Positions 11,065 to 56,666 of a stretch of 64,000 bases of DNA are shown here, in pieces; the first letter of the stretch is position 1, and every line of letters starts with the position of its first letter. A program made the translations under genes and the position numbers. The DNA is from an uncultured Nitrospiraceae bacterium. GTDB lineage: Bacteria; Nitrospirota; Thermodesulfovibrionia; Thermodesulfovibrionales; SM23-35. The DNA is taken from assembly GCA_963718855.1 (NCBI GenBank), contig CAVRAA010000009.1:430014-494013 (forward strand), in the 5' to 3' direction. The notes beneath the pieces were generated by a model, which saw only the letters and a list, made by a program, of their open reading frames with translations, ran no database searches and had not been told where the DNA came from.

Positions 11065-11097
11065 TGTAATATTCCTGTAATATTTCTTTGCTATAGT
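11065..11097 (+). promoter_or_regulatory. Pho-box-like operator + -10 (TGTAATattccTGTAAT, 10 nt, TATAGT)
   Basis: Half-sites start at 11065 and 11076 (11-bp register). The -10 is at 11092-11097 and the ATG at 11104, 6 nt later, with no SD. Confidence 0.6.
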
Positions 11098-24826: not shown

Positions 24827-24881
24827 TGTAACCGAAATTTAATCTTCCCTTAATATTCCTGTAACATTCCTACAGTAAATT
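24827..24881 (+). promoter_or_regulatory. Pho-box-like array, 4-5 half-sites in 11-bp register (TGTAAC, TTTAAT, CTTAAT, TGTAAC, TACAGT)
   Basis: Half-sites start at 24827, 24838, 24849, 24860 and 24871. A TAAATT -10 candidate follows at 24876-24881. Confidence 0.55.
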
Positions 24882-28592: not shown

Positions 28593-29811
28593 ATGGAGAT
28601 ATTTTATTTTTTTGCGGGGCTGTCAATGATAGGATTAGTGGCGTACGGATTCCAGATATGGGCAATCCGGTCGGCAATGAAAGCGAACGGCAAAGGGCCG
28701 GACACAGACAAGGCATCTTTGCCTTCAGCTCAACCCGGCGTTTCAGTTCTCAAGCCCCTGAAAGGGCTCGATGATAATTTGTTCGACAATATCGAGAGCA
28801 TCTGTCTGCAGGAGTACCCTGCATATGAAATCATTTTTTCATTGCAGGATTATAATGACCCTGCCTACAAAGTCGCCAGGAAGGTGAAGGAGAAATATCC
28901 GGAGAAAGATATCTCGATCATTATTGAACAGTGTAATGCAGGGCTGAATCCGAAGGTGAATAATCTTATTCCGGCATATACCGCTGCAAAATATGAGCAC
29001 ATCCTGATCAGCGACAGCAACGTGATGCCTGAAAAGGGTTACATAACAGAGATAATGAAACATATGGCAGATCCGCAGGTAGGGCTTGTCAGCAACCTGA
29101 TAAAGGGCGTCGGCGGAAGATCGGTCGGATCTATACTCGAAAATATTCATTTGAACTCCTTTATTATGGGCAGCGTCTGCTTCCTCGATTCGTTCCTTAA
29201 AATGCCGTGTGTCGTGGGCAAATCAATGCTTATGCGGAAAAAAGACCTTGAGGAGATCGGAGGCTTCAGGGCGGTGAAAGACGTCCTTGCCGAAGATTAT
29301 ATCATCGGCAAGAAGGATACAGGAGACCGGTAAAAAAGTTGTCCTGTCAAGCCACATGATAAAAAACGTGAATCATTATTGGGGCCTGCGGAAGTTCATC
29401 AACAGGCATACGAGATGGGGAAAGCTTCGGTGGAAAATAGGCGGGATAAAATACCTTTCTGAACTGCTCGGCAACGCAGTCTTCATGTCCTTTCTGCCGA
29501 TGATCCTGTGGGAATTGTCGGCAAGAACGATAGCTCTGGCGGCCTTTGTCAGCACGATGAAAATAGCGGGAGATGTCTATGTGGGCAGGCAGATCAAAAC
29601 GGAAATGAACCGCCTCCTCTATGTATTCTCCCCGATGAAAGATCTCGTCATAGGGGTCATCTGGTTTATCCCCCTTCTCAGCAACACGGTAGTATGGAGA
29701 GGAAACAAATATATCATAGGCAGGGATTCGAAATTGTCCCCATGCCCTGAAACAGGCTTGTGGTCATGGCGATACAGGCTTGTGGATTCGATAAGAACGA
29801 GATTTGCATAA
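28593..29811 (+). CDS. GT21-type (ceramide-glucosyltransferase-like) lipid glycosyltransferase, interrupted by a 1-nt frame change near 29311-29318
   Basis: VLKPLKGLD, ISDSN and LAEDY lie in ORF 28593-29333. The INRHTRWGKLRW ((Q/R)xxRW) motif lies in ORF 29287-29811. Removing one base in aagaaGgatacag gives ...AEDYIIGKKIQETGKKVVLS... Confidence 0.75.
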
Positions 29812-30107: not shown

Positions 30108-30164
30108 GGTAACAAAAACTTCATCCGTTTGTAACAGTCCTGTAACAGACAATGTGTTATTGTT
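30108..30164 (+). promoter_or_regulatory. Pho-box-like operator (GGTAAC at 30108; TGTAACagtccTGTAAC at 30130/30141) + TGTTAT/TATTGT -10 candidates
   Basis: Offsets are 22 and 11 bp. The gene start at 30183 has AAAGGAGG. Confidence 0.55.
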
Positions 30165-30182: not shown

Positions 30183-30416
30183 ATGCATTTTAGCCGTATT
30201 TTCACATTATGTCCCTATCTCTCAGGCAGTCTTGAAGGCATTGTATGCAACGCCGCTCTGACATTGGTAAGAAACATCAGCGATATCGACCCTGACATGT
30301 GTATCACCAGGCATTTCGAACTCTGCCATATCTATATCTCCAAGCTTGGGGAGATGAACGCATTTCCGGCTTTCACCGAGACCGGGTGCGGACAGATTCC
30401 TTTAACCGAAATGTAA
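30183..30416 (+). CDS. small 4-Cys protein (77 aa), paralogue of 29887-30084
   Basis: CPY-x9-C ... C-x7-C-x-I-Y. Same order and spacing class as the upstream gene. Confidence 0.5.
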   Translation: MHFSRIFTLCPYLSGSLEGIVCNAALTLVRNISDIDPDMCITRHFELCHIYISKLGEMNAFPAFTETGCGQIPLTEM

Positions 30417-30455
30417 CATTCCCGTCATAACGCTGTAACACTGCCCTCGTATGAT
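30401..30455 (+). promoter_or_regulatory. Pho-box-like array of four half-sites (TTTAAC, TGTAAC, CGTCAT, TGTAAC) + TATGAT
   Basis: Half-sites start at 30401, 30412, 30423 and 30434. -10 at 30450-30455. ATG at 30462 (6 nt later, no SD). Confidence 0.6.
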
Positions 30456-31236: not shown

Positions 31237-31653
31237 ATGCAGCCCATCTTTGACAACCTTGATGTCATCGTAAAGACGCCTTTTGAAAGAAAGGACGATA
31301 CCAATGTCTCAAAATACCGCAGTCTTGACTACCTTATCGAATCGGGGATCGTGCATATTGAACCGCTCATGTACATACGCGGGAGGAGCTTGCCCGGGAA
31401 ATTCCTTATTATCGATGAAGCTCAGAACCTGAGGCCCCTCGACGTAAAAACGATCCTTACCCGGGCCGGAGAAGGGACAAAAGTAGTGCTTACCGGCGAC
31501 CTCCATCAGATCGACACACCCTATCTTGATACCTACAGCAATGGGCTTGCCTACCTAATCAGCAAATTCATTAACGAACGTTTTTTCTGTTACCTGAATC
31601 TCAGGAAAAGCGCCCGATCTGCCCTTGCAGAGCGGTCCGCCGAGCTCCTGTGA
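31237..31653 (+). pseudogene. 3' remnant of a PhoH-like ATPase gene
   Basis: Only the C-terminal ~140 aa are present (LIIDEAQNL Walker B, VVLTGDLHQID). There is no Walker A and no N-terminal domain upstream. Confidence 0.6.
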
Positions 31654-37862: not shown

Positions 37863-37907
37863 ATGTTAACAGTTCTTTTATTACAGCAATGTTACAGAAC
37901 GATGAAA
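37863..37907 (-). promoter_or_regulatory. Pho-box-like operator on the minus strand (TTTCAT, TGTAAC, TGTAAT in register) + TAACAT
   Basis: Reverse complements of atgaaa (37902-37907), gttaca (37891-37896) and attaca (37880-37885). -10 candidate at 37868-37863. Confidence 0.5.
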
Positions 37908-37968: not shown

Positions 37969-38877
37969 TCATTTCTTCAACTCTGCATCGATCATCTGCT
38001 GGAAACCCTCGATGCTCCGGTTAGCGAGACGTTTGCCGTTCACAAAGATCGTTGGAGTACCGGTCACCCCGGCAGCGCTCCCGTTCTGAACGTCATTCTG
38101 GACTACTGCCTGAACAGATTGATCATTCATATCTTTCTTAAATCTATCGAGGTTGAGGTTCAGTTCCCTGGCAATATCAAGGAACTTCTGATCGCTCAGG
38201 GAACTCATATTTTCAAAAAGCTCGTGGTGATATTCCCAGAACTTCGCCTGCCGGTGTGCGGCAAGGACCGCAGATGAAGCCTTGCGGGCTAACGGATGCA
38301 TTTCGAGCGGAAAGTTCTTGAAAACGAGCTTCACTTCTTTCGGATATTTCTCCAGCACCTGCTGGAGGAGCGGCTCAAGCCGCGCGCAGTAGGGTCATTG
38401 GTAATCGCTGAAGACAGCGATTGTTACCGGTGCGTTTTCAGCCCCTTTGAAGGGCAAGCCCGAAACATCGATTCTGTGTACCAGATCGAGCTGGATGATT
38501 TTCGCAAGGTTCTGAGAGCTGCTTGTGAGAATCAACCTGTTGCTCTTGCCGGAAAAACTCAGCCTGTCAAACTCCGTTCCAATGGGAATGGTCTGGGTCA
38601 CCCTGTCCTCTGCAGCCGAATATACCGATACCGCTCCTGAGGAGAGAATAAAGGCCCATCTGCCATCGTCGGACTGGACAACGTCAAGGGGAGATCCCTC
38701 CAGCGTGAACTGTTTTTTCTCCTTCCACTCCAACTCAGCGCCCGAAAGGGCGGGAAAAGCCAGGAAGGAGATCAGGAGCAATACAAGGAGCCCGGCAACA
38801 GAAATGCTTCTGCCTTTCTGTTCCAATAACAAATACTTTCTCAGTCGTGCCAACACAAACAATTTTCTTCGTATCAT
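37969..38877 (-). CDS. DsbA-family thiol:disulfide oxidoreductase with predicted selenocysteine (UPYC active site), membrane-anchored / periplasmic
   Basis: ORFs 38395-38877 and 37969-38358 share one frame and are separated only by TGA (38397-38395). Read-through gives ...VTIAVFSDYQ-U-PYCARLEPLLQQVLEKYP... ...GTPTIFVNG, so the TGA sits at the first Cys of CxxC. Confidence 0.65.
38350..38394 (-). promoter_or_regulatory. candidate bacterial SECIS region downstream of the in-frame UGA
   Basis: The mRNA reads UGA-CCCUACUGCGC-GCGGC-UUGA-GCCGC-UC-CUCCAGC-AGGU-GCUGGAG. That gives two hairpins, the second with a GGU-containing apical loop. Confidence 0.4.
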
Positions 38878-38954: not shown

Positions 38955-38998
38955 ACTTTATCCGATCGATGTTACAGGGATATTACGGGCGTGTTAAG
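38955..38998 (-). promoter_or_regulatory. Pho-box-like operator on the minus strand (CTTAAC, CGTAAT, TGTAAC in register) + TAAAGT
   Basis: Reverse complements of gttaag (38993-38998), attacg (38982-38987) and gttaca (38971-38976). After 10 nt, the -10 lies at 38960-38955. Confidence 0.55.
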
Positions 38999-39095
38999 TT
39001 ATGTTAAAGATAGTGCTTCGCCTGTTGCCCAACGAAATCCCTTTGAAAGAAACGGCCAGTCATATTAACCCGGCAACTAAATACTTTAAAAAATC

Positions 39096-39185
39096 GTCAT
39101 TGTCCGGCTTGACCGGACAATCCAGAACCGAAAGCTTTCGGGATTGAAAAACCTGGATTCCCCGATCAAGTCGGGGAATGACAAG
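39096..39185. repeat. second copy of the paired ctggat...atccag REP hairpins
   Basis: tcattgtccggcttgaccggacaatccag ... ctggattccccgatcaagtcggggaatgaca. Confidence 0.5.
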
Positions 39186-39346: not shown

Positions 39347-39850
39347 TTAGTAGTGTACGGTCACACCGACTACGTCGTTGTAAGTTCCGGAAGATACGGA
39401 AGCGCCTGCCAGTAAGCGGGCGTTCACGGTATGCGGCTGGGCTGCGCCGTTGCCGGTATCAGCAACCGGAATGCCGAATGCATAAGTTCCGCCATATCCC
39501 ATATCACCCCATTCTTCCGGATCGCCATTAGGCGTAAAAAGCACATATGGCATGCTCTCTAGGCCCTGCGCAATCGTTCTGTACCCGGCAGCATAGTGCT
39601 GTCCTGCATCAAGGGTAATATTATAGGGCGTCAAATTCGTACAGGTAACAGAAACCCCTCCTGTCATATTGATTTCAGCCCCTGAGTAGGGGCCAAAGGC
39701 TACTGCAGTAGTTGTCACCGAGCATACTGCACCTACAGTGGCGCTCACATCGAGCGTTCCGGTGGCTGTTGCTGCATGCGCTGAACCAAAACCTGCAAGA
39801 CCGAGTGACAGCATCATTGCTGTCGTAAGTAATAGTTTCTTCACTTTCAT
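39347..39850 (-). CDS. spore-coat-U (SCPU) domain pilin, Csu-type
   Basis: Signal peptide, then ...VCSVTTTAVAFGPY ... VSVTCTN..PYNITLDAG ... GTYNDVVGVTVHY. This is the SCPU pattern with the conserved Cys pair. Confidence 0.8.
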   Translation of the reverse strand: MKVKKLLLTTAMMLSLGLAGFGSAHAATATGTLDVSATVGAVCSVTTTAVAFGPYSGAEINMTGGVSVTCTNLTPYNITLDAGQHYAAGYRTIAQGLESMPYVLFTPNGDPEEWGDMGYGGTYAFGIPVADTGNGAAQPHTVNARLLAGASVSSGTYNDVVGVTVHY

Positions 39851-39941: not shown

Positions 39942-42900
39942 TTACTGACAGTTTGCATCTCCAGCGTCTGCTGCGCCGTCGCAGTCATTGTCCAATGTGT
40001 CAGCGCATGTTGCATTGCCGACAGGGCCTTCTACGCCAGGCGTACCTGCCACACAGTTATTGGATGGAGCGCCGTTAGAGCAGGTGATAAGACCCGCCCT
40101 CTTGCATACTCCTACACCGCAGGTTGTCCTTACTGCCGCGATGCTCTCGTCTGTCGAGCCGTCACAGTCGTTATCCTGGCTGTCGCAGACTTCCGCTGAC
40201 GGCGTGCCAGGGGTACAGCTGTTGACCATCTGTCCGTTTGTGCAGGTTGACTGTCCTGATCTTACGCATGCGCCTACGCCGCAGGTTGTCGCTGTGGTGA
40301 GGCCATCGTCAACCGTGCCGTCACAGTCGTCGTCGATGCGGTTACAGGTTTCTGTGCCTGCTGGTTTCGGGGTGCAACTGTCGACCATCTGCCCGCCTGC
40401 ACAGGTTGCCGTGCCGCGCGCTACACATGCGCCTAAACCGCAGGTTGTCCTTACCGCCGCGATGCTCTCGTCTGTCGAGCCGTCGCAGTCATTGTCCTGA
40501 CCGTCGCAGACTTCCGCTGACGGTGAAGCCGGTGTGCAGGTATTGCCTCCCCATAGGCCTGCCGTGCAGGTTTCGGTTCCGGTCCTTGCGCAGCCGCCGA
40601 TACCACAGCTTGTCTGGCGAGTCACGCCATCGTCTACCTGTCCGTCGCAGTCGTCGTCAATGTTATTGCATGTCTCGGCTGCCGAGGCGCCCGGTGTACA
40701 GGTCTGGGCCATCGCTCCGCCGATACATTCATTGTAAGCAGCTCTCTTGCATGCGCCTTCACCGCAGGTTGTGCGGAGCATAACCGGCGCGATGCCTTCG
40801 TCTGTCTGTCCGTCACAGTCATTGTCAGCGCCGTCGCAGACTTCTTCTCCTGTAGGAATACAGGACACGATAGTGAGGCTGCCGTCTACCGATGTGCCGG
40901 GAATCTCATTGGCATTGACATCAACAAGTTCGCTGAAGGTAATATCCAGCAGAGTGCTGCCCAGGTTTGTTCCGGTTGTACATACAAGCTTTACTATGCT
41001 GCCGCTGCCCGCTCCGAGGCCGCTATTCGCCGGGTCATACCCTATAACGCTTATCTGTCCTGCAGACGGGTTGTCATCAAAAGACCACCCTGCGTTTAAC
41101 GAACCAGCGGCGGATGCTGTACAGTTGAGCATGGCAGGATTGTAGCTTACGGTAAACTGGAATGCAGCAACGCCTGCTGCATCACTAATGCTAATCGGGA
41201 TTTCGACCGGGATACCCGGAACATAGCTCACAGTGGGCGTTGAAATCAACCTTGGTTCTACACAGTCGATGTCAGAACCGTCTGCTGCGCCGTCGCAGTC
41301 GTTGTCGATTGAGTCACTGCAGGTCGCGTTTCCGAATGGCCCTTCTGTCTGCGGCGCGTTCGGCACACAGGTGCTGGCAAGCGCATGGTTCGGAAGCACG
41401 CATACCATCTCTCCCGTTGAAGCACATGCACCTACACCGCAGGTTGTCGGCGTCGGCACATAGTTTTCATCAGAGGTGCCGTTGCAGTTTTCGTCTACGT
41501 CGTCACAGTCGTTGTCGGTCCCTGTCGTGGCCCCCGGTGTGCAGTTATCCACCATCACGCCATTCTGGCAGGTTGACTGACCTGTTCTGGCACAAACACC
41601 GACGCCGCAATTTGTGGGGACAGTTGCGATTCCATCATCTACTGTTCCATTGCAATTATTGTCGATACCGTCGCAAACTTCAACGCCTGTCGGCGTACAG
41701 CTGTTGATCGTAACACTTCCGGCAGTTGCTGCACCGGGAATCACCTGTGCATTGACGTCTACAAGTTCACTGAATGTGATATTCATGGGTGTGCTGCTTC
41801 CATATGTACCGATAGCGGAACATACAAGCACAACCAGGCTTCCGCTGCCTGAAGCGATTCCATTATTTGACGGGTCGCTCCCTAAAACAGCTATCTGACC
41901 GGCAATCGGATTATCGTCAAAAGTCCATCCCGCTGTTAAAGCCCCGGTGCCTGCTGCTGTACAGTTGAGCACCGCAGGATCGTAGGTAACGGTGAACTGG
42001 AATGCCGCTATGCCGGTTGCATCGTCAACAGTGATCGGAATGTTGACTGCCGCGCCTCTGTCAGCAGATATCTCAGGGATATCAACTGCCCGAGGCTGAA
42101 CGCAGTTGACGTCTGCGCCGTCTGCTGCGCCGTCGCAATCGTTGTCGGTCGAGTCACCGCAGGTTGCATCACCAAACGGCCCTTCTGTCTGAGGAAGGTT
42201 CGGCCTGCAGGTGTCGGCAAGTGCATGGTTCGGCAGTACGCAGGCCATTTCACCGGTTGATGCACATGCGCCTACTCCGCAGGTTGTCGGAGTCGGCACA
42301 TAGTTTTCATCGGATGTGCCGTTGCAGTTTTCGTCTACGTCGTCACAGTCGTTGTCGGTCCCTGTCGTGGCGCCCGGTGTGCAGTTGTCCACCATCACTC
42401 CGCCCTGGCAGGTTGACTGTCCTGTTCTGGCGCAAACACCTGCGCCGCAGGTGGTCGGAACAGGTGCGATACCGTCATCGGCTGTGCCGTCGCAGTCATC
42501 GTCGATATTGTTGCATGTTTCTGTCGATGGGGTACCCGGTGTGCAGTTGTCCACCATCACGCCGCCCTGACAGGTTGATTCGCCTGTTGCAGCACATGCA
42601 CCCTGACCGCAATTGGTCGGGACTGCAGCGATTCCGTCATCCACCGTGCCGTCGCAGTCGTCATCAATGTTATTGCATATCTCTGTTGCGCCCGGATAAA
42701 CTGCATTGTTGTTATCATTGCAGTCAACTTCACCGCAAGCGCCGCCTTCGATGGCATACGTGTCATTATCAGCATCGGTACATGCGGAACCATTGACAGT
42801 AAATGTGCACCCACCGGTTATTGCAGGAATTGCTTCGTCTATGTACTCATCGCCGGTGTCCGGTGTTCCGTCCGGGTCTACCAGGAAGACAAAACCCTCC

Positions 42901-43322
42901 GGATACCCGCCTGCCATGCCCACTGGGGTGCTGCTTCCAGCGGTTCCCATGACAGTACAGGTAAATGTTGCGATGAGTCCGCTGCCCGGTGCGATGCCGA
43001 CACCGGTTCCATCGTTCAGCAGAATTCTGAAGTCGCCTGCCAGGTCACTGGTAGATATGCCAAATCCAGTGAACAGGCCCCCCCTTGTCGCTGCGGTACA
43101 ATCCAGCACTGCCTGATTAAAATTCAAACCGAGCTGAAGACCGGTCAGCGTGTCCGGCTCGCCGTCAAAATCCCATTCCCCGTAAACAGGGAATTGGACT
43201 GTCGCGCCCGGGTCTGCATTGGGCGGGCAGCCGTTTATCCACAGCTCGTTCGCCGCATACGCATTCGCTGAGAATACAAGAAGCAGGGCAAACAGTATCA
43301 AGAGTATTTTAGCCCTTTTCAT
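39942..43322 (-). CDS. secreted scaffoldin-like protein: three cohesin-like modules separated by MopE-type Cys-rich repeats
   Basis: Signal peptide. Cohesin-like blocks at about 43250-42780, 42100-41690 and 41270-40855 (AAFQFTVTYDPAVLNC...GSGSLVVLVC...). Between and after them lie CNNIDDDCDGTVDDGIA.VPT.CG.G.C..TG.STCQGG repeats. About one residue in ten is Cys. Confidence 0.65.
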   Translation of the reverse strand: MKRAKILLILFALLLVFSANAYAANELWINGCPPNADPGATVQFPVYGEWDFDGEPDTLTGLQLGLNFNQAVLDCTAATRGGLFTGFGISTSDLAGDFRILLNDGTGVGIAPGSGLIATFTCTVMGTAGSSTPVGMAGGYPEGFVFLVDPDGTPDTGDEYIDEAIPAITGGCTFTVNGSACTDADNDTYAIEGGACGEVDCNDNNNAVYPGATEICNNIDDDCDGTVDDGIAAVPTNCGQGACAATGESTCQGGVMVDNCTPGTPSTETCNNIDDDCDGTADDGIAPVPTTCGAGVCARTGQSTCQGGVMVDNCTPGATTGTDNDCDDVDENCNGTSDENYVPTPTTCGVGACASTGEMACVLPNHALADTCRPNLPQTEGPFGDATCGDSTDNDCDGAADGADVNCVQPRAVDIPEISADRGAAVNIPITVDDATGIAAFQFTVTYDPAVLNCTAAGTGALTAGWTFDDNPIAGQIAVLGSDPSNNGIASGSGSLVVLVCSAIGTYGSSTPMNITFSELVDVNAQVIPGAATAGSVTINSCTPTGVEVCDGIDNNCNGTVDDGIATVPTNCGVGVCARTGQSTCQNGVMVDNCTPGATTGTDNDCDDVDENCNGTSDENYVPTPTTCGVGACASTGEMVCVLPNHALASTCVPNAPQTEGPFGNATCSDSIDNDCDGAADGSDIDCVEPRLISTPTVSYVPGIPVEIPISISDAAGVAAFQFTVSYNPAMLNCTASAAGSLNAGWSFDDNPSAGQISVIGYDPANSGLGAGSGSIVKLVCTTGTNLGSTLLDITFSELVDVNANEIPGTSVDGSLTIVSCIPTGEEVCDGADNDCDGQTDEGIAPVMLRTTCGEGACKRAAYNECIGGAMAQTCTPGASAAETCNNIDDDCDGQVDDGVTRQTSCGIGGCARTGTETCTAGLWGGNTCTPASPSAEVCDGQDNDCDGSTDESIAAVRTTCGLGACVARGTATCAGGQMVDSCTPKPAGTETCNRIDDDCDGTVDDGLTTATTCGVGACVRSGQSTCTNGQMVNSCTPGTPSAEVCDSQDNDCDGSTDESIAAVRTTCGVGVCKRAGLITCSNGAPSNNCVAGTPGVEGPVGNATCADTLDNDCDGAADAGDANCQ

Positions 43323-43381: not shown

Positions 43382-44902
43382 TTATTCCAGACAGCATGTT
43401 ATTGTTGCGTCTTTGCCCAATGCGTAACGTGTTATCTTCGCAACATCTGTGGCGTTTACGACTCCACTATTGTTTGTATCCGCACATGACTGCACGGCAT
43501 CCTTGCCCAAAGCTATTCTTGTTGCTTTGGCTACGTCAGCGGCAGTAACCGCAGCATTATAGTTAAGATCTCCTACGAGCTGCTTTGCTGCGCCGAAAGA
43601 GGTCCAGCCATATGTCCAGTCATTGTCCGGGTCAACCGCGCCGATAAAGTCAACTGCTTCAAAGAAACCGTCTGCCGGAGGAGTTGCAACCGGGATTGTG
43701 CCGTTTGCAAGCGGTGAACTGGGCGCAGGCGCAAAGTTGGGCATATATTTTTGTGTTGTAGCAACAGCACCGTAAATGTCAATCGGCAGTGGATTGCAGA
43801 GCTGGCAATCAACCGTCTGAAGATTTGTCCATAATCCGGCGGTAATCGCATTCTGGGCAGCGGTATTGTATTGTGCAGCGCCGCCTTTGTTTCCGTAGAC
43901 GCAGCCGTTGCTTAATACTAAGTTTCCGGCATTGATCTGGTTGATTGTTTCCGTATCGTCGACTCTTACGCCGAAGTCTTTGAAGCCGGTAATAACAAAA
44001 TTCTTGATCGTGCCTGCGGTGCCGCGTCTCAGTCTCATGCCAAAGGTGCTTTCCGTTCCATAGGTCGTGTTCGGATCCCCGACAAAGGTCAAATTGTAGA
44101 TCGTGGGGTTTGAGCGCGGCGTATTAGTGTGTCCGAACTCATAGTTGTCAGCCTCTATGCCGGCGTCTGCCTCGTCTGCTCTCTGCGAAACGATAACAAA
44201 CTGGGCTTTACCCTGCCATCCCTCTGTCCAGTCAAAAGAGTCGTCACGACACCAGGTGCCGATCATGTACTTCATATTGACCGTGCCGCCGAACATCTCG
44301 ATGCAGTCATCCTTATTCATAAGCACCTGAACGTGGTCAACCGTCGTGCCATTGCCGACGCCATGGAAGGCGATGCCGTTCAGCTCGCTGGTTTCGGTGA
44401 ACAGATGGCCGGCATACTCAATGCGCACATACTGGAGATGCCCTGAGTTGTCTGCAGGGTCTGATCCACCATATAACCCGGTGGTTCCTTCGATACCGGC
44501 TTCACCGCCCGGAACATTAATCGGGGCATACCCGCCGATAATAACTCCGCCCCAGAGACCTCTGTCCAGGAGCCCGCCGAATTTTACTCTCGATGTGGTA
44601 AAAACAATCGGCTGTGATGAAGTGCCGATTGCATGGATCTTTGCCCCTCTTTCAACAACCAGGGTGCCGATAGTTGACTCGTCGCCGTAAATCTTTACTC
44701 CCGGCTGAATCGTAAGTTCAGCAGGCGCCTTAACAAAAACCGTGCCGCTCAGAAGATACTCGGTATCCGCCGGGGTGCCGGTCGGTCCCAATGTCGTATT
44801 CGTTGTGATGTCGCCGCCGATTGTGGTAATCGCCGACGCGGTGTTCAACGACATAAGGATTAACGACAATGCAATTAAAAATAATGTCCATCCCTTTCGC
44901 AT
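43382..44902 (-). CDS. secreted beta-helix-like protein with C-terminal dockerin-like duplicated Ca-binding loop
   Basis: Start moved to MRKGWTLFLIAL, after AAGGAGAGG. The C-terminus is GDLNYNAAVTAADVAKATRIALG ... ADTNNSGVVNATDVAKITRYALG, i.e. two DxNxNxxxxxxD-helix segments. Confidence 0.6.
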   Translation of the reverse strand: MRKGWTLFLIALSLILMSLNTASAITTIGGDITTNTTLGPTGTPADTEYLLSGTVFVKAPAELTIQPGVKIYGDESTIGTLVVERGAKIHAIGTSSQPIVFTTSRVKFGGLLDRGLWGGVIIGGYAPINVPGGEAGIEGTTGLYGGSDPADNSGHLQYVRIEYAGHLFTETSELNGIAFHGVGNGTTVDHVQVLMNKDDCIEMFGGTVNMKYMIGTWCRDDSFDWTEGWQGKAQFVIVSQRADEADAGIEADNYEFGHTNTPRSNPTIYNLTFVGDPNTTYGTESTFGMRLRRGTAGTIKNFVITGFKDFGVRVDDTETINQINAGNLVLSNGCVYGNKGGAAQYNTAAQNAITAGLWTNLQTVDCQLCNPLPIDIYGAVATTQKYMPNFAPAPSSPLANGTIPVATPPADGFFEAVDFIGAVDPDNDWTYGWTSFGAAKQLVGDLNYNAAVTAADVAKATRIALGKDAVQSCADTNNSGVVNATDVAKITRYALGKDATITCCLE

Positions 44903-45115
44903 TTTTTCCTCTCCTTCTTTTTTTAAAGGTTCATACATCGAAAGACCATCCCCAGGAAACATCGATACGCATCACCCCTCCTTTCTGATAAGCAGACCAG
45001 GAAACACATCACCCCCCTTCAAAGCATCTTCATTTATATATGGATAGACCGGACGCAGCCTGCTTCATCGTGCGGCAAACTGATTGAGACACCGCGCACG
45101 AAGTCTTTAAGGAAC

Positions 45116-45283: not shown

Positions 45284-45327
45284 TTTAACACGACTGTAAC
45301 ATCCCTGTAACATGACTCTGTTATTTT
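45284..45327 (+). promoter_or_regulatory. Pho-box-like operator (TTTAAC, TGTAAC, TGTAAC in register) + TATTTT, facing the chaperone-usher genes
   Basis: Half-sites start at 45284, 45295 and 45306. -10 candidate at 45322-45327. Confidence 0.55.
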
Positions 45328-45529: not shown

Positions 45530-46321
45530 GTGTATCGAAATTTTATGCTTGTAACGTTCACCATATTATTCTTTCTGATGCATTCCCATGCCGTTGCAGG
45601 CTCGTTTAAGGCTGTACCGGTGAGGCTCTTCGTGGATGTGAAATCCAATACTGCTGTCCTCAAGATTATCAATCAGGGGGATGACAGGGTAACGGTGCAG
45701 CTTGACGCCAGGAGTTGGCGGCAGGATGAAACCGGGCAGGACATGTATGAGGACACCGGAGACATCATCTTCTTTCCCAAGATCGCGCATATTGAAAAAA
45801 ACGAGGAGCGGATAATTCGCATAGGATACAAAGGAAAACAGGGATCTGTCGAAAAAACATACCGGTTATTCATGCAGGAACTGCCTGTCACCAAACCAGG
45901 CGGGATGGCGCTCCAGCTGGCCTTGACGATAACAATTCCCATTTTTGTAGAGCCGGAAAAAGAAGAGAAGGCGGGCTGGACCGCGGAGACCGCAGAATTC
46001 TCAGAGGAGACACTCAGGATAAAGGTCAGAAACAGCGGCAACAGGCACATCGTGGTCAGCAAGATCACGGCGGTCGGGCTCGATGAAGCCGGCAGGGAGG
46101 TATTCTCAAAAGATGCGGCCGGATGGTATACCCTCGCGCGTACGTCAAGAATATATGCCGTCCCGATACCGTATGAAGAATGCCTGAAGGTGACAACGAT
46201 CAAGGTGAAAACCGATCTGGAGAAAGACAGCAGGACCTTCACCCTGGATGTGGGTCAAGAGATGTGCACCCGGAAACCGGAGAGTGAAAAAAACAGAATA
46301 AAGGAGAAGGCATCGCATTAG
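45530..46321 (+). CDS. periplasmic pilus chaperone (PapD/CsuC-like)
   Basis: Signal peptide, then an Ig-like N-domain pattern (F.A.PVRLF.......AVLKI.N.GD..V.VQ) and YRLFMQELP. Confidence 0.8.
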   Translation: MYRNFMLVTFTILFFLMHSHAVAGSFKAVPVRLFVDVKSNTAVLKIINQGDDRVTVQLDARSWRQDETGQDMYEDTGDIIFFPKIAHIEKNEERIIRIGYKGKQGSVEKTYRLFMQELPVTKPGGMALQLALTITIPIFVEPEKEEKAGWTAETAEFSEETLRIKVRNSGNRHIVVSKITAVGLDEAGREVFSKDAAGWYTLARTSRIYAVPIPYEECLKVTTIKVKTDLEKDSRTFTLDVGQEMCTRKPESEKNRIKEKASH

Positions 46322-46367
46322 CAAAGGTCATGATTCCGAATTGCTATGCCAGAAAAAAAGACACATC

Positions 46368-48694
46368 ATGTCCAGGCGACTTATCGCGCTCCTGATCCTT
46401 CTCTGTTTTCATTCATATTCATACGGGTCGGAACGGGCCGTTATGAGGGTGTTCCTTAATAATCAGGAAAAAGGGGACTTCTTTTGCATCATGGCTGATG
46501 GAGGCAGACTGCTCTTTTCACCGGGAGATATGCTCGCAATAGGTTTACAAAGATACCCGAAGGGGCTGAAACCGGAGAGGATGGACATGTGTATCTCGAT
46601 TCCCTTTCTCCTGGGGTAACATTCGAACTGGACAAGAATGCATCTGCTATTTACATTATTGCAGAGCCTCGTTTGCTCAAAAAGAACACGGTCGATCTCT
46701 CCTATAAAAGAGAGGAAAGGGTGTTTCACGCAACAGACGCTTCAGTATTTTTCAATTACGGCCTTGCTTACACAGCCGGCAGCGATTTTGATTTCACCTC
46801 CATGACCATCCCGATGGAATTAGGCATTCGTACTGACGGCTATCTCGGCATCTCCAACTTCATGTACGACAAAAGCGACTACGACGAGAAGTTTGTAAGG
46901 CTTTTGACCAGTGTCATACGGGATGATACGGACAGGCTCAGACGATACACGATCGGAGATTTCTATGCCTTTTCCGGCCAGCTGGGGAGTGGGGCGATTT
47001 TAGGCGGACTCAGCGTAGCCAGAAATTTCTCGATGAGTCCTTTCTTTATCAGGCATCCCGGTCTGGACATCACCGGCATGTTGAATACGACCTCGGATGT
47101 CCGGATATACGCAAATGACATGCTCGTGAAGGACACGAAGCTAACGCCCGGGGAATTCGAATTTCTGAACATTCCCAACATCCATGGAGCAGGGGAAATC
47201 TCGTTTGTTGTCAGGGACGCCTTTGGGCGGGAAGAAACGCTTCCAATACCTTACTATATATCGACCGCGCTCCTGAAACCCGGCCTGCATGATTACAGCT
47301 ATAATCTCGGGTTCAAACGAAAGGAGTTCGGCCGCGAAAGTTTTGAGTATGATGAACCAGCCTTTCTCGGGTTCCACAGGGTCGGTTTTTCGCGAACGTT
47401 TACCGGAGGAGTCAGGGCAGAGTTCGACAAAAACTGCGTGAACGCGGGACCCACTGCAGGGTTTCTGCTCGGGGACCTCGGAGAACTCGACACCTCCCTT
47501 GCCCTGAGCAATGCCGATGGACGATTCGGATACGGATTTTCTGCAAACTATTCCTATGCGGGCAGACATTTCAGCGGACGAATCTTCATGAAGGGTCTCA
47601 GCAGGGATTACGCGAATCTTGTGGTATCCCACTCTGATGACAAACCGCGCTTCGAAAGCTGGGCCAGCCTCGGTTTCAATCACAACAGGTTCGGTTCAGT
47701 ATCTGTTGCCTACTCTGCCGCAGATCGTTACAAAGGGACAGATATCGAGAGGGCTTCACTCTTTTACCACAGAAGGGTCGTCAGGAATGTATCATTGGAC
47801 GTTATAGCCAGCAGGACAGACGCGGAGGACCGTACCTACGAGGTTTTTGCCGGACTGACGTTTATCCTCGGCAAAGACACCTCAGGGAATCTGGGCTACA
47901 GAGCGCAGGATGACGCTTCGATCATGACTGCAAGACTTCAGCAGAACCCGCCCCTTGACAGAGGCTTCGGCTACAGGGTAACCGTTGACAGGAGAGACAA
48001 CGACGAGGACACCTATCAGGACAACATTGAAACCGATGCAGATGGCTTCCTGCAGTACCGGGGTCCATACGGTGTCTATTCAGCGGAATACAGGAGAGCC
48101 GCTGGAGAGAATAGTTATACAGTCGGCACATCCGGCGGCCTTGTTTTTATCAAGAACTCTCTCCATTTCACAAGACCCGTCACCGACGGCTTTGCACTTG
48201 TCAAGGTAGGAGACTTCGAAAATGCCCATGTCTACTACAATAACCAGGAAGCAGGGACAACCGACAGAAACGGTGAGATCATTATCCCCAATCTCATATC
48301 ATACTATCCCAACAGCATCTCCATTAATGATACGGATTTCCCGGTCAACTACACAATCCCGGCAATCGAAAAACTCGTCACCATTCCGTTCAGGGGCGGC
48401 GGCGTAGTCACATTCGACATCCGAAAACTGCAGGCCTTTACAGGCCGGCTGTACATCGTGGAGAAAGATGCAAAAATTGAAGCTGAATACTGGGGATTGG
48501 ATATCCAGGCCGATGACCGCGCGGTGGAAGCTGTCGTAGGCAAGAAAGGTGAGTTTTACATGGAAAATATCGCTGCAGGCAGATACCCTGCACGGCTTTT
48601 CGCAGGAGAAAAGGAATGTATTTTTACCATAACAATACCGTCAAGCGACGAGGCCATGGTAGACATGGGGGAGGTCAGCTGTGAAATGCATTAG
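46368..48694 (+). CDS. outer-membrane pilus usher (CsuD-like), frame change near 46575-46590
   Basis: ORF 46341-46619 carries the signal peptide and N-terminal domain (MSRRLIALLILLC...). ORF 46589-48694 continues with YLDSLSPGVTFELD and a ~700-aa barrel. The two are in different frames. Confidence 0.8.
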
Positions 48695-49130
48695 TGTTCT
48701 CGTTATAGTGTTTGCGTTAATTGTGGCCGCAGCGGCACAGGGCGAAGCATGCTCTATTACAACCTCACCTGCCCATTTCGGGAATTATGATCCGACGGCA
48801 TCCGCGCCTCTCGATACGGTTGGGAATATCAGCGTAACCTGTGATTCCGGCACCCCGTTCACCATAAAATTGGATTCAGGGCAGAATTCGACTGGAGGGT
48901 TTGACAGACAGATGCGCTCTTCGGCAGGTGATTTCTCGCTCGATTACAACCTCTTCAGAGATTCTGCCCGCACAGAAGTCTGGGGGGACGGCACCGGCAG
49001 CACCTTCATCCAGGCAGGCGTCGGTACCGGAATACCAGCCCAGTTCAATCTCTACGGCCGCATTTCCGGACGACAGAATGTCAAGGCAGATATCTATAAT
49101 GATTCGATCATCGTAACGGTGGAATGGTGA
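48681..49130 (+). CDS. spore-coat-U (SCPU) domain pilin subunit
   Basis: ACSITTSPAHFGNYD ... ISVTCDSGTPFTIKLDSG ... DYNLFRDSARTEVWG ... YNDSIIVTVEW. Confidence 0.85.
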   Translation: MKCISVLVIVFALIVAAAAQGEACSITTSPAHFGNYDPTASAPLDTVGNISVTCDSGTPFTIKLDSGQNSTGGFDRQMRSSAGDFSLDYNLFRDSARTEVWGDGTGSTFIQAGVGTGIPAQFNLYGRISGRQNVKADIYNDSIIVTVEW

Positions 49131-49254: not shown

Positions 49255-49346
49255 ATCCGGCATGCTGTCAGAATCTTTGAAAGAAAACGGCTTATTGTGC
49301 GCTGGGATTCATACATCCTGTAGTGATAGGGGAAGCGTTTTTTTCT

Positions 49347-50087
49347 ATGGCTAAAGCAACCTATATCCTGCTTCTGAGTGATAACCCGCATACGGCAAAA
49401 AACCTCACCGGTACATTGGCCAGGGAGGGTTTTATTGTTGATACAGTTGCCGATGCTGAAAACGTCCTCTCAAGCATAAAAAAGAGGACGTATGATCTGA
49501 TAGTGCTGAATCCGGTGTCGCTCGGGATGAAGGGCCTGGACCTCTGCCGCACCCTGAAAAATGACACGCAAACAGCAAAAATACCGATTATCGTCATCGC
49601 TGTCACCAAAGATGAAGTCGACACAGTGCTCAGTCTCGAAATCGGCGCCGATGATTATATGACCGAACCGGTGAATATCAAGGAACTGGCAGCAAGGATA
49701 AACGCAGTAATGAGAAGAACACGGACAAAGGTGACTGATATGAAGATTCTGCAGAGAGGAGAAATTGTCATAGACACGGAAAAATGCGCAGTGCGAAAAA
49801 ACGGCAGGAAAATTGTATTAACTGCTCAGGCCTACAAACTATTATGCTTCCTTGCAGAAAGCCAGGGGAAGGTATTCAGCCGTGAACAGCTCCGGGATGA
49901 GGTCTGGAACCGGACCACCTTCGTCGGATTGAGAACGATTGACGTGCATATAAGAAAATTGAGAGAAAAACTGGAGCAAAGCCCTTCGCATCCTGAATAT
50001 ATTAAGACATTCCGTGGCATCGGATATTTCTTTGATCGTGGTCAGCCCTCTCAAAAAGACGATGAATCGCAGAATACGCTGCAATAA
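49347..50087 (+). CDS. OmpR/PhoB-family regulator with degenerate (non-phosphorylatable) receiver domain
   Basis: Aligned by eye to the PhoB at 22307: DD becomes SD, phospho-Asp ILDLMLPG becomes VLNPVSLG, T becomes A, and SKPF becomes TEPV. The winged helix is conserved (RTIDVHIRKLR ... FRGIGYFF). Confidence 0.8.
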   Translation: MAKATYILLLSDNPHTAKNLTGTLAREGFIVDTVADAENVLSSIKKRTYDLIVLNPVSLGMKGLDLCRTLKNDTQTAKIPIIVIAVTKDEVDTVLSLEIGADDYMTEPVNIKELAARINAVMRRTRTKVTDMKILQRGEIVIDTEKCAVRKNGRKIVLTAQAYKLLCFLAESQGKVFSREQLRDEVWNRTTFVGLRTIDVHIRKLREKLEQSPSHPEYIKTFRGIGYFFDRGQPSQKDDESQNTLQ

Positions 50088-50184: not shown

Positions 50185-51673
50185 ATGATGAAAACAGTGA
50201 GGACATTTTTGATAATTTTCGCCCTGCTGCTCATGTCAGCGAATGCGTTTGCAGCAACCGTTTCTATTCCGGGTACATATGCAGATGCAAGTGCGCCTGT
50301 GCAACTCCCAATTAATGCACAGTGGGATTTCGCGCTGACCGCATTTCAATTTACCATTACTTACAACCCGTCGGTGCTCACTTGCACCGGAGCATCATTA
50401 GGAGATGTATTATCGGCAGCCGGAGGATGGTCTGTCAGTGTGAATACCCTTTCAGGTCAGATAGGCGTATTAGGGAATGATGCAAATGGAATCGGCATCT
50501 CACCAGGTAGTGGAAATCTCGTAAAACTTCAGTGCACCGTTGTCGGGAACGAGGGCGACAGCACATCCCTTCAATTCACGGGCACAAACGTATTGGTTGA
50601 TACTGATATAAACGAGTATGTGCCTGCAACCACTGCGGGAATACTCACAATTGGCGCATGCGTACCCTCGGAAGAACGATGCGACAGGCTGGACAATGAC
50701 TGCGATGGGCAGGTGGATGAGGAGATTGCCCCTGTGCCGACCACCTGCGGCATTGGTGCATGCTCAACTACCGGCCAAGCAACCTGTCAAAATGGTCAGC
50801 TGGTTGACAGCTGCCGACCTCCTGCTGAGGGGCCTTTTGGCGATCCGACATGCGACGATCTGGCGGATAATGACTGCAACGGATTTACCGATAGTAACGA
50901 TCCGAACTGCATTGAATGTGTCCCCTCCGAAGAACTATGCGACGGGCTGGACAATGACTGCGACGGTCAGGTGGATGAGGAGATTGCCCCTGTGCCGACC
51001 ACCTGCGGCGTTGGTGTGTGCTCCTCAGGAGGCCAGTTAATCTGCGACGGGGGACAGATGATTGATACCTGCACCCCGGGCATGCCGCAGGCTGAAGGAC
51101 CTTCCGGAAGCAGAACGTGCAGTGACAGCCAGGGACAATGACTGCGATGGTTCCATTGATTCTTCCGATCCCGGCTGCCTCGTGCAGCCAACAGGAATGG
51201 ACCGCTGGGTCGGGAAATGGTTCAGCATTAAAAGGACAATGAAGGGCAGCGCTTTTCGCGCGACTGATTCAAAATTTTTAACGGACAAAAGCAGCGGGAG
51301 TGGCTATCTATACATCTGGGGATGGGACCTGAATGCCGAACTATTGCGATTTGATTACTATGAATTCATGGAATACGACGATATCTGGCATGTGAACACC
51401 GACGCTTTTCACTTCTTTGCCGGCACTGATGACAAATTCCTCTTCTGGTACAACAGTGCAGATGCCACCTCTGAAGCAGGATTAAACGGATTGATCGACG
51501 GAAAGGTGAAAGACGGAGAATTGCAGAGCGCCAGCATCAAGACATTAGGTGGTCTGTATCTCGATGTCAGTGACGATTATACCCGTTACTCCGCCGGCGA
51601 ACAGACGCTGAACGGAAGGATGATCGATGCGTCGAAAGTACCGGTGCCATTCAGCGTAATAATACCGCGATGA
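50185..51673 (+). CDS. secreted cohesin-like + Cys-rich-repeat protein with conserved C-terminal domain; 1-nt frame change near 51130-51135
   Basis: ORF 50185-51141 ends ...TCSDSQGQ*. Removing one G from caGGGac gives TCSDSQDNDCDGSIDSSDPGC, which continues into ORF 51062-51673. Confidence 0.65.
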
Positions 51674-51722
51674 ACGATAAATACAATTTATCCAACAAAA
51701 GCATATATTGTGTGGAGGGAGC

Positions 51723-54700
51723 ATGAAAATAACTAAAATAGCATTGATTCTGTTCATTTTATTGGTAGGTTCAGCCCAAGGATTTGGAGCAAGTGTCTCA
51801 ATCTCCAACAGTGCTGCAGACGCAGGTGCAGCCGTCCAGATTCCCATTAACGGCAGTTTTGATTTTCCGCTGACATCGTGCCAGTTCACAATCACGTACA
51901 ATCCTTCCGTGCTGAATTGCACTGGTGCAGTATCAGGAGACTTAACAGGCGGTTGGACAGTTTCTACAAATGCATTGACAGGCGAGATGAGAGTGCTTGT
52001 GAACGATGGAACCGGAAATGGTATTGCTCCAGGAAGCGGTAATCTGGTTAAGCTCAATTGCACTGCTGCCAGCAATCCCGGGGCCTCCACCCCCGTAACA
52101 TTTAGCGGGGTAAATGTGTTAGTGGACATAGACATAAACGAATACATTCCTACAACAACGCCGGGAACCTTTACGATCAATGGCGGTTGCATCCCTACAA
52201 CCGAAGTATGCGATGGAGTAGACAATGACTGCGATGGCCAGATTGACGAGGGCGTAAAGAACACCTATTATCGCGATGTCGATAACGACACCTTCGGTAA
52301 CCCCAACGATACAACCCAGGCTTGCACCATTCCCCAGGGCTATGTCTCCAACAATACCGACTGCAATGACAGCAACCATGCAGTAAAGCCCGGTGCGACA
52401 GAAACCTGTAACAATATCGATGACAACTGTGATAGCACAATCGACAATGGCATCGCATCAACACCAACCACCTGTGGTGTAGGCTTTTGTGCCTCAACAG
52501 GCCAGTCGGCCTGCCAAGGAGGCCAGATGGTGGATACCTGCACTCCGGGGACTCCGCAGACAGAAGGACCCTTCGGCAACGCTACCTGCTCGGACTCATC
52601 AGACAACGACTGTGACGGTGCAACCGATGCGGCTGATTCAGGATGCATACAGCAGTGCGTGCCCTCGACCGAAGTATGCGACGGTGTGGACAATGACTGC
52701 GACCAGCAGACGGATGAAGGCATCGCTGCTGTGCCGACTACCTGCGGAATAGGCGCTTGTCAGAGGTTAGGACAGAGCACCTGCCAGTCCGGCGAGATGG
52801 TTGACAGTTGTACCCCGGGCACCTTGTCATCAGAAACCTGCAATGGTATTGACGACGATTGTGACGGAACAGTTGATGATGGGGTAAAAAACACCTATTA
52901 CCGCGACGCTGATAATGACACTTTTGGAAACCTCAATAATACAACACAGGCTTGCACTCTGCCCCAGGGCTATGTCTCCAACAATACCGACTGCAATGAC
53001 AGCAACCCTGCAGTAAAGCCCGGTGCGACAGAAACCTGTAACAATATCGATGACAATTGCGATGGCCAGACTGATAACGGGATCGCGTCAACACCGACCT
53101 CCTGTGGAACAGGCGCTTGTGCCTCAACCGGCCAGTCAATCTGCCAGGGTGGCCAGATAATCAATACCTGCACATCGGGTAACCCTCAGACTGAAGGGCC
53201 CTTTGGGAATGCCACCTGTTCGGACTCCTCGGATAACGACTGTGACGGCACAACTGATGCGGCTGATTCAGGATGTGTGGAGGTCTGCACTCCTTCCACC
53301 GAAGTCTGTGACGGTGTGGATAATGACTGTGATGATCAAGTAGATGAAGGGGTAAAAAACACTTATTACCGCGACGCTGATAATGACACCTTTGGAAACC
53401 CTAATGATACAACGCAGGCATGTACCCTTCCGCAGGGCTATGTTTCCAATAACACCGACTGCAATGACAGCAACCCTGCGGTAAAACCCGGTGCAATAGA
53501 AACCTGTGACAGCGTAGACAATAATTGCGATGGCCAGACAGACAACGGCATCGCTTCTGTACCGACCACCTGCGGCGTAGGCGCATGTGCTTCTGCAGGC
53601 CAGTCAATCTGCCAGGGTGGCCAGATGGTCGATACCTGCAAATCAGGGAACCCTCAGACTGAAGGGCCCTTTGGGAATGCGACCTGTTCGGACTCAACGG
53701 ATAACGACTGTGACGGCTCGACCGATGCATCTGATTCAGGGTGCGCTCAACAGTGTACTCCTTCTACTGAAGTATGTGATGGCGTAGACAACGACTGTGA
53801 CAGTCAGATTGATGAGGACATCGCTGCTGTGCCGACTACCTGCGGCGTAGGCGCTTGTGCTGCAAATGGCCAGAGCACCTGTCAGGCCGGACAAATGGTT
53901 AACAGTTGCATTCCGGGGACTCCTCAGGCCGAGGGTCCGTTCAGCAATGCTACCTGCTCGGATTCATCAGATAATGACTGTGATGGCTCAACTGACACTG
54001 CCGATTCAGGATGCGTTCAGCAGTGCACTCCTTCCACAGAGGTCTGCGATGGGGCAGATAACGACTGTGACGGTCAGATTGATGAAGACATCGCTGCTGT
54101 ACCGACCACCTGCGGCGTAGGCGCATGTGCTTCTACAGGCCAGTCAGTCTGCCAGGGTGGTCAGATGATCAATACCTGCACACCAAGTAACCCTCAGACT
54201 GAAGGGCCGTTTGGCAATCCGACCTGTGCAGACTCCTCGGATAACGACTGTGACGGCACAACCGATGCATCTGATTCAGGATGTGTTGAGGTCTGCACTC
54301 CTTCTACTGAAGTATGTGATGGCGTAGACAACGACTGTGACGGTCAGATTGATGAAGACATCGCTTCTGTACCGACGACCTGCGGCGCAGGCGCTTGTGC
54401 TTCTGCAGGCCAATCAATCTGCCAAGGGGGCCAGATGGTCAATACCTGCACCCCGGGTGACCCTCAGACTGAAGGTCCGTTTGGTAATCCGACCTGTTCG
54501 GACTTATCCGACAACGACTGCGATGGTGCAGTTGACACGGCTGATTCTGGATGTGTAGAGGTCTGCGCTCCTTCCACCGAAGTCTGTGACGGTCTGGATA
54601 ATGACTGTGATGGCCAAGTTGATGACGACATCGCTGCCGTACCGACCACCTGTGGAGTGGGCATCTGTGCTGCAAATGGCCAGAGCACCTGTCAGGCCGG

Positions 54701-56192: not shown

Positions 56193-56627
56193 TTAAGAAG
56201 ACTGCTTGATAAATTCCTGCACCATGGATTTGATATTCTCTCGGATAACACGCGTCTTCGCCATTTTTTCCTCATGGCTTCCGACAAACGATGAAGGATC
56301 TTCAAATGACCAGTGGAGTCTCTTCGTTACACCCGGGAAAACCGGACATCGTTGAGCAGTTGCCTCATCACAGACACTGATTACATAGTGGTACAATTTA
56401 CCGGCCTTCACCAAATCAAACACCGTGCTCGCCTGCTTGGCTGAGATATCAATCCCTTCTTCTTTCATGGCTTCAACCGCAAGGGGATTTAATTCTCTTG
56501 CCTCAAATCCTGCACTTTCCGCCTCGAAGCGGTCTTCTCCGTAGTAATTGAGGAACGCTTCAGCCATCTGACTTCTTGCTGAATTATGAACACACACGAA
56601 TAATACCTTAATTGTATTTTCCCCCAT
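56193..56627 (-). CDS. arsC: arsenate reductase / LMW-PTP family, paralogue of 11104-11538
   Basis: [25 protein letters not shown]... is collinear with the first copy over all 144 aa. Confidence 0.85.
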
Positions 56628-56633: not shown

Positions 56634-56666
56634 AGAATACCAGAGAAATGTTACAGGAATATTACA
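56634..56666 (-). promoter_or_regulatory. Pho-box-like operator + -10 on the minus strand (TGTAATattccTGTAAC, 10 nt, TATTCT)
   Basis: Reverse complements of attaca (56661-56666) and gttaca (56650-56655). -10 at 56639-56634. ATG at 56627 (6 nt later, no SD). Confidence 0.6.

Follow-up and report, generated by a model that had tools for sequence, protein, structure and literature searches.

Selenoproteins of the DsbA-like type, in which selenocysteine (Sec, U) occupies the first position of a UxxC redox motif, were described from the Sargasso Sea in 2005 and from the genomes of Anaeromyxobacter, Desulfovibrio and Desulfotomaculum in 2006, and a tally made in 2016 arrived at 45 such genes in 41 organisms (PMC1088965, PMC1794560, PMC5029168, PMC13188914). 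A review of 2026 groups them with the DsbG-like and the thiol:disulfide-interchange selenoproteins (PMC13188914). Here we report on a gene on the minus strand of a 64-kb window (i.e., the whole stretch of 64,000 nucleotides that was analysed) which fits this recognized class of UxxC DsbA-like selenoproteins. Comparison with the sequences of its relatives makes it very likely that an in-frame UGA of this gene (TGA at 38397-38395) encodes Sec, giving the active-site motif U161-P-Y-C164.

With the family catalogued as "DsbA-like protein form 1" (PF01323) the predicted protein shares the DSBA/thioredoxin fold, Sec as the first residue of UxxC, the existence of Cys homologues and a candidate selenocysteine insertion sequence (SECIS) on the 3' side of the UGA; the DSBA profile matches it above its gathering threshold, with U as the first residue of the redox motif U-P-Y-C. 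It differs from the Sargasso Sea family, which belongs to COG2761 (FrnE-type), in that it scores best on Thioredoxin_4 (PF13462) and in that it possesses a leader and an extra N-terminal beta domain of ~90 residues. The best NCBIfam match is the Rcas_1661/DsbG-like (seleno)lipoprotein family NF041057, which is likewise an exported thioredoxin-like UxxC family; membership of this family was rejected, since the score of 79.9 bits falls short of the curated cut-off (190 bits) and only profile positions 76-246 aligned. No NCBIfam model covers the subfamily to which the window protein belongs; this would account for the absence of the word selenoprotein from the source names shown for its homologues.

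Gene structure and protein fold

An earlier note on this DNA had pointed out that two minus-strand open reading frames (ORFs), 38395..38877 and 37969..38358, share one frame and are split only by the TGA at 38397-38395, and both the ORF listing and the translation bear this out. Read through, the product runs ...APVTIAVFSDYQ-[TGA]-PYCARLEPLLQQVLEKYP...GTPTIFVNGKRL..., and the residues after the UGA continue as PYCARLEPLLQQVLEKYPKEVKLVFKNFPL...GTPTIFVNGKRL...ELKK up to the end of the gene. The gene and its protein comprise the following features:

37969..38877, minus strand: complete gene of the predicted selenoprotein, 302 codons, with ATG at 38877, one internal UGA and the terminal TGA at 37971-37969
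38887-38883, minus strand: Shine-Dalgarno sequence GAGGG, preceding the ATG at 38877
38737..38877, minus strand: N-terminal leader, residues 1-47, with a basic n-region, hydrophobic VAGLLVLLLISFLAF and then ...PALSGA before the conserved ELEW
38458..38736, minus strand: conserved N-terminal all-beta domain, residues ~48-140, with two four-stranded sheets (residues ~60-145 in the AlphaFold2 model)
37984..38448, minus strand: catalytic domain of the DsbA/Thioredoxin_4 type, residues 144-298, which contains UPYC and the cis-Pro loop GTPT
38395..38397, minus strand: in-frame UGA, the predicted Sec161 codon, first position of U-P-Y-C
38386..38388, minus strand: UGC codon of Cys164, the resolving Cys of UxxC, invariant in alignments A1 and A2

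Both Thioredoxin_4 (103 bits) and DSBA (81.8 bits, cut-off 25.6) of Pfam cover residues 144-298, so that the TGA stands at the first position of the CxxC motif, i.e., where the nucleophilic Cys belongs, just as had been noticed before. That the read-through product has a complete DsbA/thioredoxin fold, another of the initial observations, agrees with these scores and with an AlphaFold2 model calculated with alignment A1 (predicted local distance difference test score of 91.5). The model has the DsbA fold, with U161 at the N-terminus of the helix formed by residues 163-177 and the GTPT cis-Pro loop at residues 273-276, and the thioredoxin fold with helical insertion, the redox motif at helix 1 and the cis-Pro loop of the Thioredoxin_4 oxidoreductases are all found in it. 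The closest solved structures, with template modeling scores normalised to the target of 0.79-0.82, are BdbD of B. subtilis (3eu3), 3gyk of Silicibacter pomeroyi, alpha-DsbA2 of Wolbachia (6eez) and ScsC (4xvw/4gxz/7rgv) of Proteus, Salmonella and Caulobacter. These proteins and the DsbA/TsdA of C. diphtheriae have the catalytic fold, the CxxC at helix 1 and the cis-Pro loop in common with the window protein, but the solved Thioredoxin_4 relatives are all Cys enzymes whereas the window protein is predicted to be a Sec enzyme.

ScsC and the window protein also share the possession of an extra N-terminal module, which in ScsC is a helical trimerisation stalk whereas it is all-beta and propeller-blade-like in the window protein. 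This domain has a weak profile link to the YVTN beta-propeller 1l0q, matched at profile positions 31-116, but the 42 bits are those of the whole sequence and no single stretch is within the E-value limit. In the model it resembles two YVTN blades, and a complete propeller might arise by oligomerisation. The leader, which contains a helix at residues 27-39 in the AlphaFold2 model, probably represents an export signal or a membrane anchor.

Conservation of the UGA and the alternatives to selenocysteine

A protein search recovered 1275 homologues of the read-through protein, the closest orthologues being 56-58% identical to it over the full length. In the best 120 protein matches, 79 motif instances have Cys at the active-site column and 44 have "W". 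The 44 matches deposited with W would fit a variant genetic code that reads TGA as an amino acid (as Trp in code 4 or as Gly in code 25), as gene callers assumed on short contigs. At the DNA level, however, the "W" of two of these loci, L001 and L002, is a TGA that was mis-translated with code 4 on short contigs, and the code-4 translation of L001 overruns the true TGA stop of this gene. Furthermore, TGA ends 14 of the 46 ORFs of the window, including trpD and aroB (both of which match their family profiles nearly to the end) and the gene discussed here, no other ORF of the window contains an internal TGA, and Trp or Gly at the position of the CxxC nucleophile would inactivate the enzyme. We give a variant code, therefore, practically no weight.

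The metagenome scan took in the 80 closest orthologue loci. A motif scan revealed TGA at the active-site column in 57 of these and TGC/TGT in 15, and an RNA covariance model added seven TGA forms with the variant motifs UAYC, UQYC, UPAC, ULYC and UPYS; in a single locus among the 80 (L083) the column was unresolved. Together with L001 and L002, the 64 metagenome loci bring the number of contigs with TGA to 66 besides the window, and in each of these an intact and conserved downstream frame of 141 codons follows the TGA. TGC or TGT at the same column occurs in 17 loci, including the named genomes of Desulforhabdus sp. TSK and of a Syntrophobacteraceae bacterium (a metagenome-assembled genome, MAG), and a scan of genome contigs matched distant Cys-type relatives only, with Desulforhabdus sp. 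TSK as the top match at 43%. The Cys-containing versions that the earlier note had proposed to look for by aligning orthologues are thus indeed present, both in the 79 motif instances and in the 17 loci. What is expected of a selenoprotein gene, i.e., a UGA that aligns with Cys and that two or more independent sequences keep, with the frame behind it intact, is what we found here.

Two of the orthologue loci showed peculiarities. The Sec form of one of them (L060:784-835) reads U-P-Y-S, with Ser in place of the resolving Cys, which indicates either a different mechanism or a sequence error in a short contig. In another, the contig of the Sec-form orthologue carries a second thioredoxin_4 gene (L042:4339-5652) with Cys in its CPYC motif; its product starts with a fused multi-pass membrane domain, which looks VKOR-like by eye only.

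Since 66 other contigs have TGA at the same column, the TGA is not a chance stop. It could still be a true one, in a pseudogene, through a sequencing error, or at the end of a 160-residue N-terminal protein, with the thioredoxin part left untranslated or translated from the GTG at 38358. Standard gene calling does split the gene, other genes of the window are damaged as well (i.e., the HpnI gene, with a frameshift, at 28593-29811 and a PhoH fragment), and some termination at a Sec UGA is to be expected as a by-product. Nevertheless, we regard a true stop as extremely improbable: TGA occupies exactly this column in 66 independent contigs, with the intact frame behind it, the downstream part keeps Cys164, the GTPT cis-Pro loop and the full-length identity to the closest orthologues, a fragment starting from GTG 38358 would be without the active site, and the covariation of the hairpins behind the TGA is specific to the TGA forms. 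Because the 66 contigs keep the TGA and TGA is an ordinary stop in the window, a sequencing error, a private nonsense mutation and the codes 4 and 25 are excluded.

The hairpins downstream of the UGA and the predicted decoding of selenocysteine

The mRNA immediately 3' of the UGA contains two hairpins:

38370..38383, minus strand: hairpin H1, GCGGC-UUGA-GCCGC, 5 bp, starting 11 nt after the UGA, -7.9 kcal/mol
38350..38367, minus strand: hairpin H2, CUCCAGC-AGGU-GCUGGAG, 7 bp, starting 27 nt after the UGA with its loop at 34 nt, -11.3 kcal/mol

Both had been recognized in the sequence before, and RNA folding reproduces them at 38383-38370 and 38367-38350, respectively. All Sec forms have both hairpins, H1 with 5 bp around a 4-nt loop of variable sequence, and H2 with the loop AGGU in 55 of 60 sequences. 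Pairs were counted in an ungapped alignment (A3) of 57 distinct Sec sequences, in which 95.5% of the cells of H2 and 80.7% of those of H1 are paired. Changes on both sides occur at 9 of the 12 pairs (4 of 5 in H1 and 5 of 7 in H2); pair 40:51 of H2, for example, is GC in 31 and CG in 25 sequences, and pair 22:33 of H1 is CG in 22, AU in 17 and GC in 5. The covariation score is 0.318 versus 0.138 for shuffled alignments, with none of 500 shuffles reaching the observed value, and it is at most 0.078 when the 3' partners are slid. RNAalifold alone keeps H2 and not H1; H1, which is less regular, is backed by the explicit pair counts.

The hairpins sit in the conserved coding segment A-R-L-E-P-L-L-Q/E-Q-V-L-E, where the choice among synonymous codons follows the base pairing. 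The Val codon that closes H2 is GUG in 56 of the 56 Val-encoding Sec forms versus 9 of 14 Cys forms (p = 1.7e-4), the Leu codon of the 3' arm of H2 tracks the codon opposite to it (CUC with GAG in 28 and CUG with CAG in 19), and in H1 the Arg codon (CGG/AGG) covaries with the Pro codon (CCG/CCU). These constraints on synonymous sites act on the RNA rather than on the protein.

The published consensus for the bacterial SECIS element (bSECIS) calls for an upper stem with 4-16 bp that carries an apical loop of 3-9 nt, a G at the first or second nucleotide of the loop, usually with G or U after it, a distance of 16-37 nt between UGA and loop, and a minimum free energy of at most -7.5 kcal/mol (PMC13188914). 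H2 of the window agrees with all four constraints, as do 57 of 60 Sec forms versus 3 of 17 Cys forms (Fisher p = 5e-10). H2 is the best candidate for the stem-loop to which SelB would bind, whereas H1 probably has an accessory or spacing role in the SECIS. Like the SECIS of E. coli fdhF, the predicted element is a stem-loop within the coding sequence on the 3' side of the UGA, and the GC-AGGU apex of H2 resembles the GCA-GGUC-UGC of fdhF. However, the fdhF element is one long hairpin with the loop at 18 nt, whereas the window has two short hairpins with the consensus-like loop at 34 nt. H1 begins as far behind the UGA (11 nt) as has been reported for the minimal fdhF element.

The earlier note had further proposed that a formal SECIS model be run on the minus strand. 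A covariance model built from 53 orthologues, with the window sequence left out, matches the window end to end at 38346-38397(-) with 77.6 bits (E = 5.6e-26), and nothing in the rest of the window scores above 10.1 bits. We consider this match a consistency check and not an independent proof. In Rfam, no family passed the gathering or E-value threshold at the site and no matching bacterial SECIS family was found. Cys forms fall progressively in the covariance model, from 58 bits to below 15. Three of them with TGC/TGT at the active-site column (L036:738-789, L037:978-1029 and L039:1912-1963), the same three Cys forms that agree with the bSECIS constraints, have both hairpins intact, score 57-58 bits and are near-identical to neighbouring Sec forms across the hairpin segment. 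They look like recent Sec-to-Cys conversions with a fossil SECIS, a phenomenon described before (PMC1794560).

Several observations weigh against the decoding of the UGA as Sec. The 64-kb window contains no selA, selB, selC or selD and no tRNA-Sec (NCBIfam, 30 proteins; Pfam, 20); its only tRNAs are tRNA-Gly and tRNA-Cys. The capacity of the source organism to decode Sec would thus have to be taken from the precedent of its lineage. The loop of H2, at 34 nt, is close to the upper bound of 37 nt, and H1, with a spacing of 16 nt and the loop UUGA, departs from the consensus in the loop-G rule alone. The score of the covariance model partly reflects the coding conservation of the hairpin segment. 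Finally, the folding energy of the single sequence is only modestly better than that of shuffled sequences, with z-scores of -1.45 (71 nt) and -2.35 (52 nt), a measure that is uninformative because the bona fide SECIS of E. coli fdhF, which is confirmed, scores only -1.33.

As to the lineage, TrpE of the window is 75-77% identical to proteins of Nitrospirota and Thermodesulfovibrionales MAGs. The Thermodesulfovibrio genomes examined possess a complete Sec machinery (PMC5389517), and selC is reported to lie within selB in Nitrospirae (PMC8124441, as cited in PMC13188914). No other credible candidate emerged in the window from a scan for pairs of ORFs in the same frame with a TGA between them; the gene of a P-type ATPase at 58868-62062, a class that includes selenoproteins, has no in-frame TGA.

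The literature on the Sec machinery also brings up the possibility that the UGA is decoded as Cys, either always or when selenium is scarce, by a selC* tRNACys-UCA, perhaps with a second SelB, in which case the gene would yield a conventional DsbA-like enzyme with CPYC, or Sec and Cys forms side by side. An opal-anticodon form of such tRNA-Sec-like selC* tRNA-Cys did read UGA as Cys in E. coli (PMC5389517), the window is derived from a member of the Nitrospirota, and Cys serves at this position in many homologues. Yet the window contains no selC*, selB* or cysS* gene, the opal-anticodon forms with a dedicated CysRS* belong to a subgroup of the Desulfobacterales and were not shown for Nitrospirae, and all genomes that contained selC* also had the full Sec system (PMC5389517). 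Moreover, the closest relatives strongly keep TGA over TGC/TGT, which argues that Sec itself is selected. Decoding as Cys seems, therefore, very unlikely.

With Sec as by far the preferred reading, the initial proposal of a Sec-containing, exported DsbA-like oxidoreductase gains support from the Sec/Cys column, the conserved TGA, the fit of H2 to the bSECIS consensus, the covariation and the match of the covariance model. The protein would be an exported two-domain thiol-disulfide oxidoreductase, consisting of a leader, a small beta domain and a thioredoxin-fold domain of the DsbA/BdbD/ScsC type, with Sec as the nucleophilic first residue of its active site (U161-P-Y-C164). If established bacterial Sec biology applies, a ribosome that arrives at the UGA at 38397-38395 would recode it, with insertion of selenium into the protein, rather than terminate. 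The mRNA 3' of the UGA would fold as a bipartite signal, H1 followed by H2, of which H2 would recruit SelB-GTP-Sec-tRNA(Sec) and H1 would probably shorten or fix the distance from the UGA to H2. The oxidised enzyme would then hold a selenenylsulfide in place of a disulfide, which would be expected to accelerate thiol-disulfide exchange and to promote isomerase or reductase chemistry on its substrates in the periplasm of an anaerobe.

Upstream repeats, neighbouring genes and wider meaning

Two further features lie upstream of the gene:

38970..39007, minus strand: four direct repeats [T/G]TAA[C/T]A with a spacing of 10, 11 and 11 bp, overlapping a -35/-10-like promoter; candidate operator of the OmpR/PhoB type
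39099..39179, minus strand: two terminator-like hairpins, which end the upstream operon of spore coat protein U (SCPU) and Cys-rich proteins

Because these terminator-like hairpins end the upstream operon, the selenoprotein gene is a separate transcription unit. The repeat motif GTAAYA-N5-GTAAYA, with its period of 11 bp, occurs at 11 sites in the window versus 0.43 expected, all of them intergenic and before genes (11066-11082, 24850-24866, 30131-30147, 30413-30440, 37879-37895, 38970-38997, 45285-45312 and 56649-56665). It precedes two LMWPc/ArsC-like paralogues, a porin, an HMA_2 protein, the selenoprotein gene and, just downstream of the latter, an operon of hypothetical, TonB, ExbBD and receptor proteins, and it also occurs in the divergent region between the Cys-rich operon and the PapD-usher-SCPU pilus operon. 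The two LMWPc/ArsC-like paralogues, at 11104-11538 and 56193-56627, are 144 residues long each.

The pattern marks a putative local regulon of the kind typical of OmpR/PhoB-type regulators, and the repeats are a candidate operator. Two OmpR-family regulators are encoded in the window, at 22307-23005 and 49323-50087, one of which lies beside a PhoR/PnpS-like kinase and pit. The layout of a Pho box, i.e., at least two 7-bp direct repeats with an 11-bp period over the -35 region, is present at 39007-38970, with three to four direct repeats (C)TGTAAYA at a periodicity of 10-11 bp, and the window also holds a PhoB/PhoR-like pair and pit. The sequence of the repeats differs, however, from the E. coli consensus, which is CTGTCAT, and the regulator at 49323-50087 is an equally good candidate. 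Of the Pho-box-like operator that had been suggested, the motif is thus real and over-represented, whereas its assignment to PhoB is weakened by the presence of two candidate regulators.

The neighbouring genes encode proteins with MopE motifs and cohesin domains that contain 82 and 118 Cys, and a dockerin protein; the "well over a hundred Cys each" of the earlier note is too high for the former of these counts. The idea that the selenoprotein is a dedicated folding catalyst of these Cys-rich neighbours found little support and is weak, because, among the 84 orthologue loci, the closest one (L017, 56% identity) is the only locus that shares a MopE-type Cys-rich neighbour, and the terminators separate the gene from the Cys-rich operon. 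Clustering of the flanking ORFs of these loci revealed no recurrent neighbour for the Sec forms; a subgroup of the Cys forms shares PhoH-like and further downstream neighbours. The shared repeat motif, which suggests a possible co-regulation with the Cys-rich operon, is the sole further hint for a role as folding catalyst. A more far-reaching proposal would be that the gene represents a distinct and uncatalogued subfamily, with a leader, a two-blade beta domain and a Thioredoxin_4 domain with U-x-x-C (mostly U-P-Y-C), in which Sec forms prevail among the closest environmental relatives (64 of 80 loci). Its SECIS would be of an unusual bipartite type, the covarying hairpin at 11 nt serving as a spacer that positions the consensus-like one at 34 nt, and in the Nitrospirota genome of the window the gene would be co-regulated, via the GTAAYA repeats, with the MopE/cohesin surface proteins and its product would form or shuffle their disulfides. 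This we consider doubtful.

The large secreted cohesin and MopE-type "putative metal-binding" Cys-repeat proteins of the window (39942-43322, 50185-51141, 51708-56054 and 43382-44962; 82, 20 and 118 Cys, with the dockerin protein alongside) form a surface system of cohesin/dockerin and Cys-repeat proteins that is unusual in a genome of the Nitrospirota. Interleaved with these Cys-rich genes is a chaperone-usher pilus cluster (39347-39850 and 45530-49130) encoding a PapD-like chaperone, an usher and two SCPU (Csu-type) subunits. The PhoH-like ORF at 31237-31653 is a truncated fragment that covers Pfam positions 81-200 of 205, and full-length PhoH adjoins Cys-type DsbA homologues in six loci (L063, L064, L071, L076, L081 and L090). 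HpnI, a hopanoid glycosyltransferase, is represented by the overlapping ORFs 28593-29333 and 29287-29811, which match profile positions 10-234 and 233-371, respectively; the apparent frameshift points to a pseudogene or an assembly error. The window further contains an IS1634-family transposase gene at 12599-14380 and, besides the split hpnI, the genes trpD/E, aroB, mnmA, bioW and metK.

The gene leaves the knowledge of selenoproteins as such unchanged, since UxxC DsbA-like types entered the catalogues in 2005. Potentially new are the combination of the beta domain with Thioredoxin_4, the dominance of Sec in the closest environmental relatives and the twin hairpins, but we do not claim novelty for these. 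Standard annotation splits or truncates the gene, so that its relatives appear in databases either in pieces or with a false Trp in the active site, and a widespread environmental selenoprotein is left without annotation. With its relatives it makes up a clean natural set of ~67 Sec forms, 17 Cys forms and 3 Cys forms with an apparent fossil SECIS, in which one could examine the way a conserved coding segment accommodates a SECIS and the interconversion of Sec and Cys. For the anaerobic Nitrospirota and their relatives, the gene adds a well-supported, in all likelihood exported, UxxC oxidoreductase to the predicted selenoproteome.

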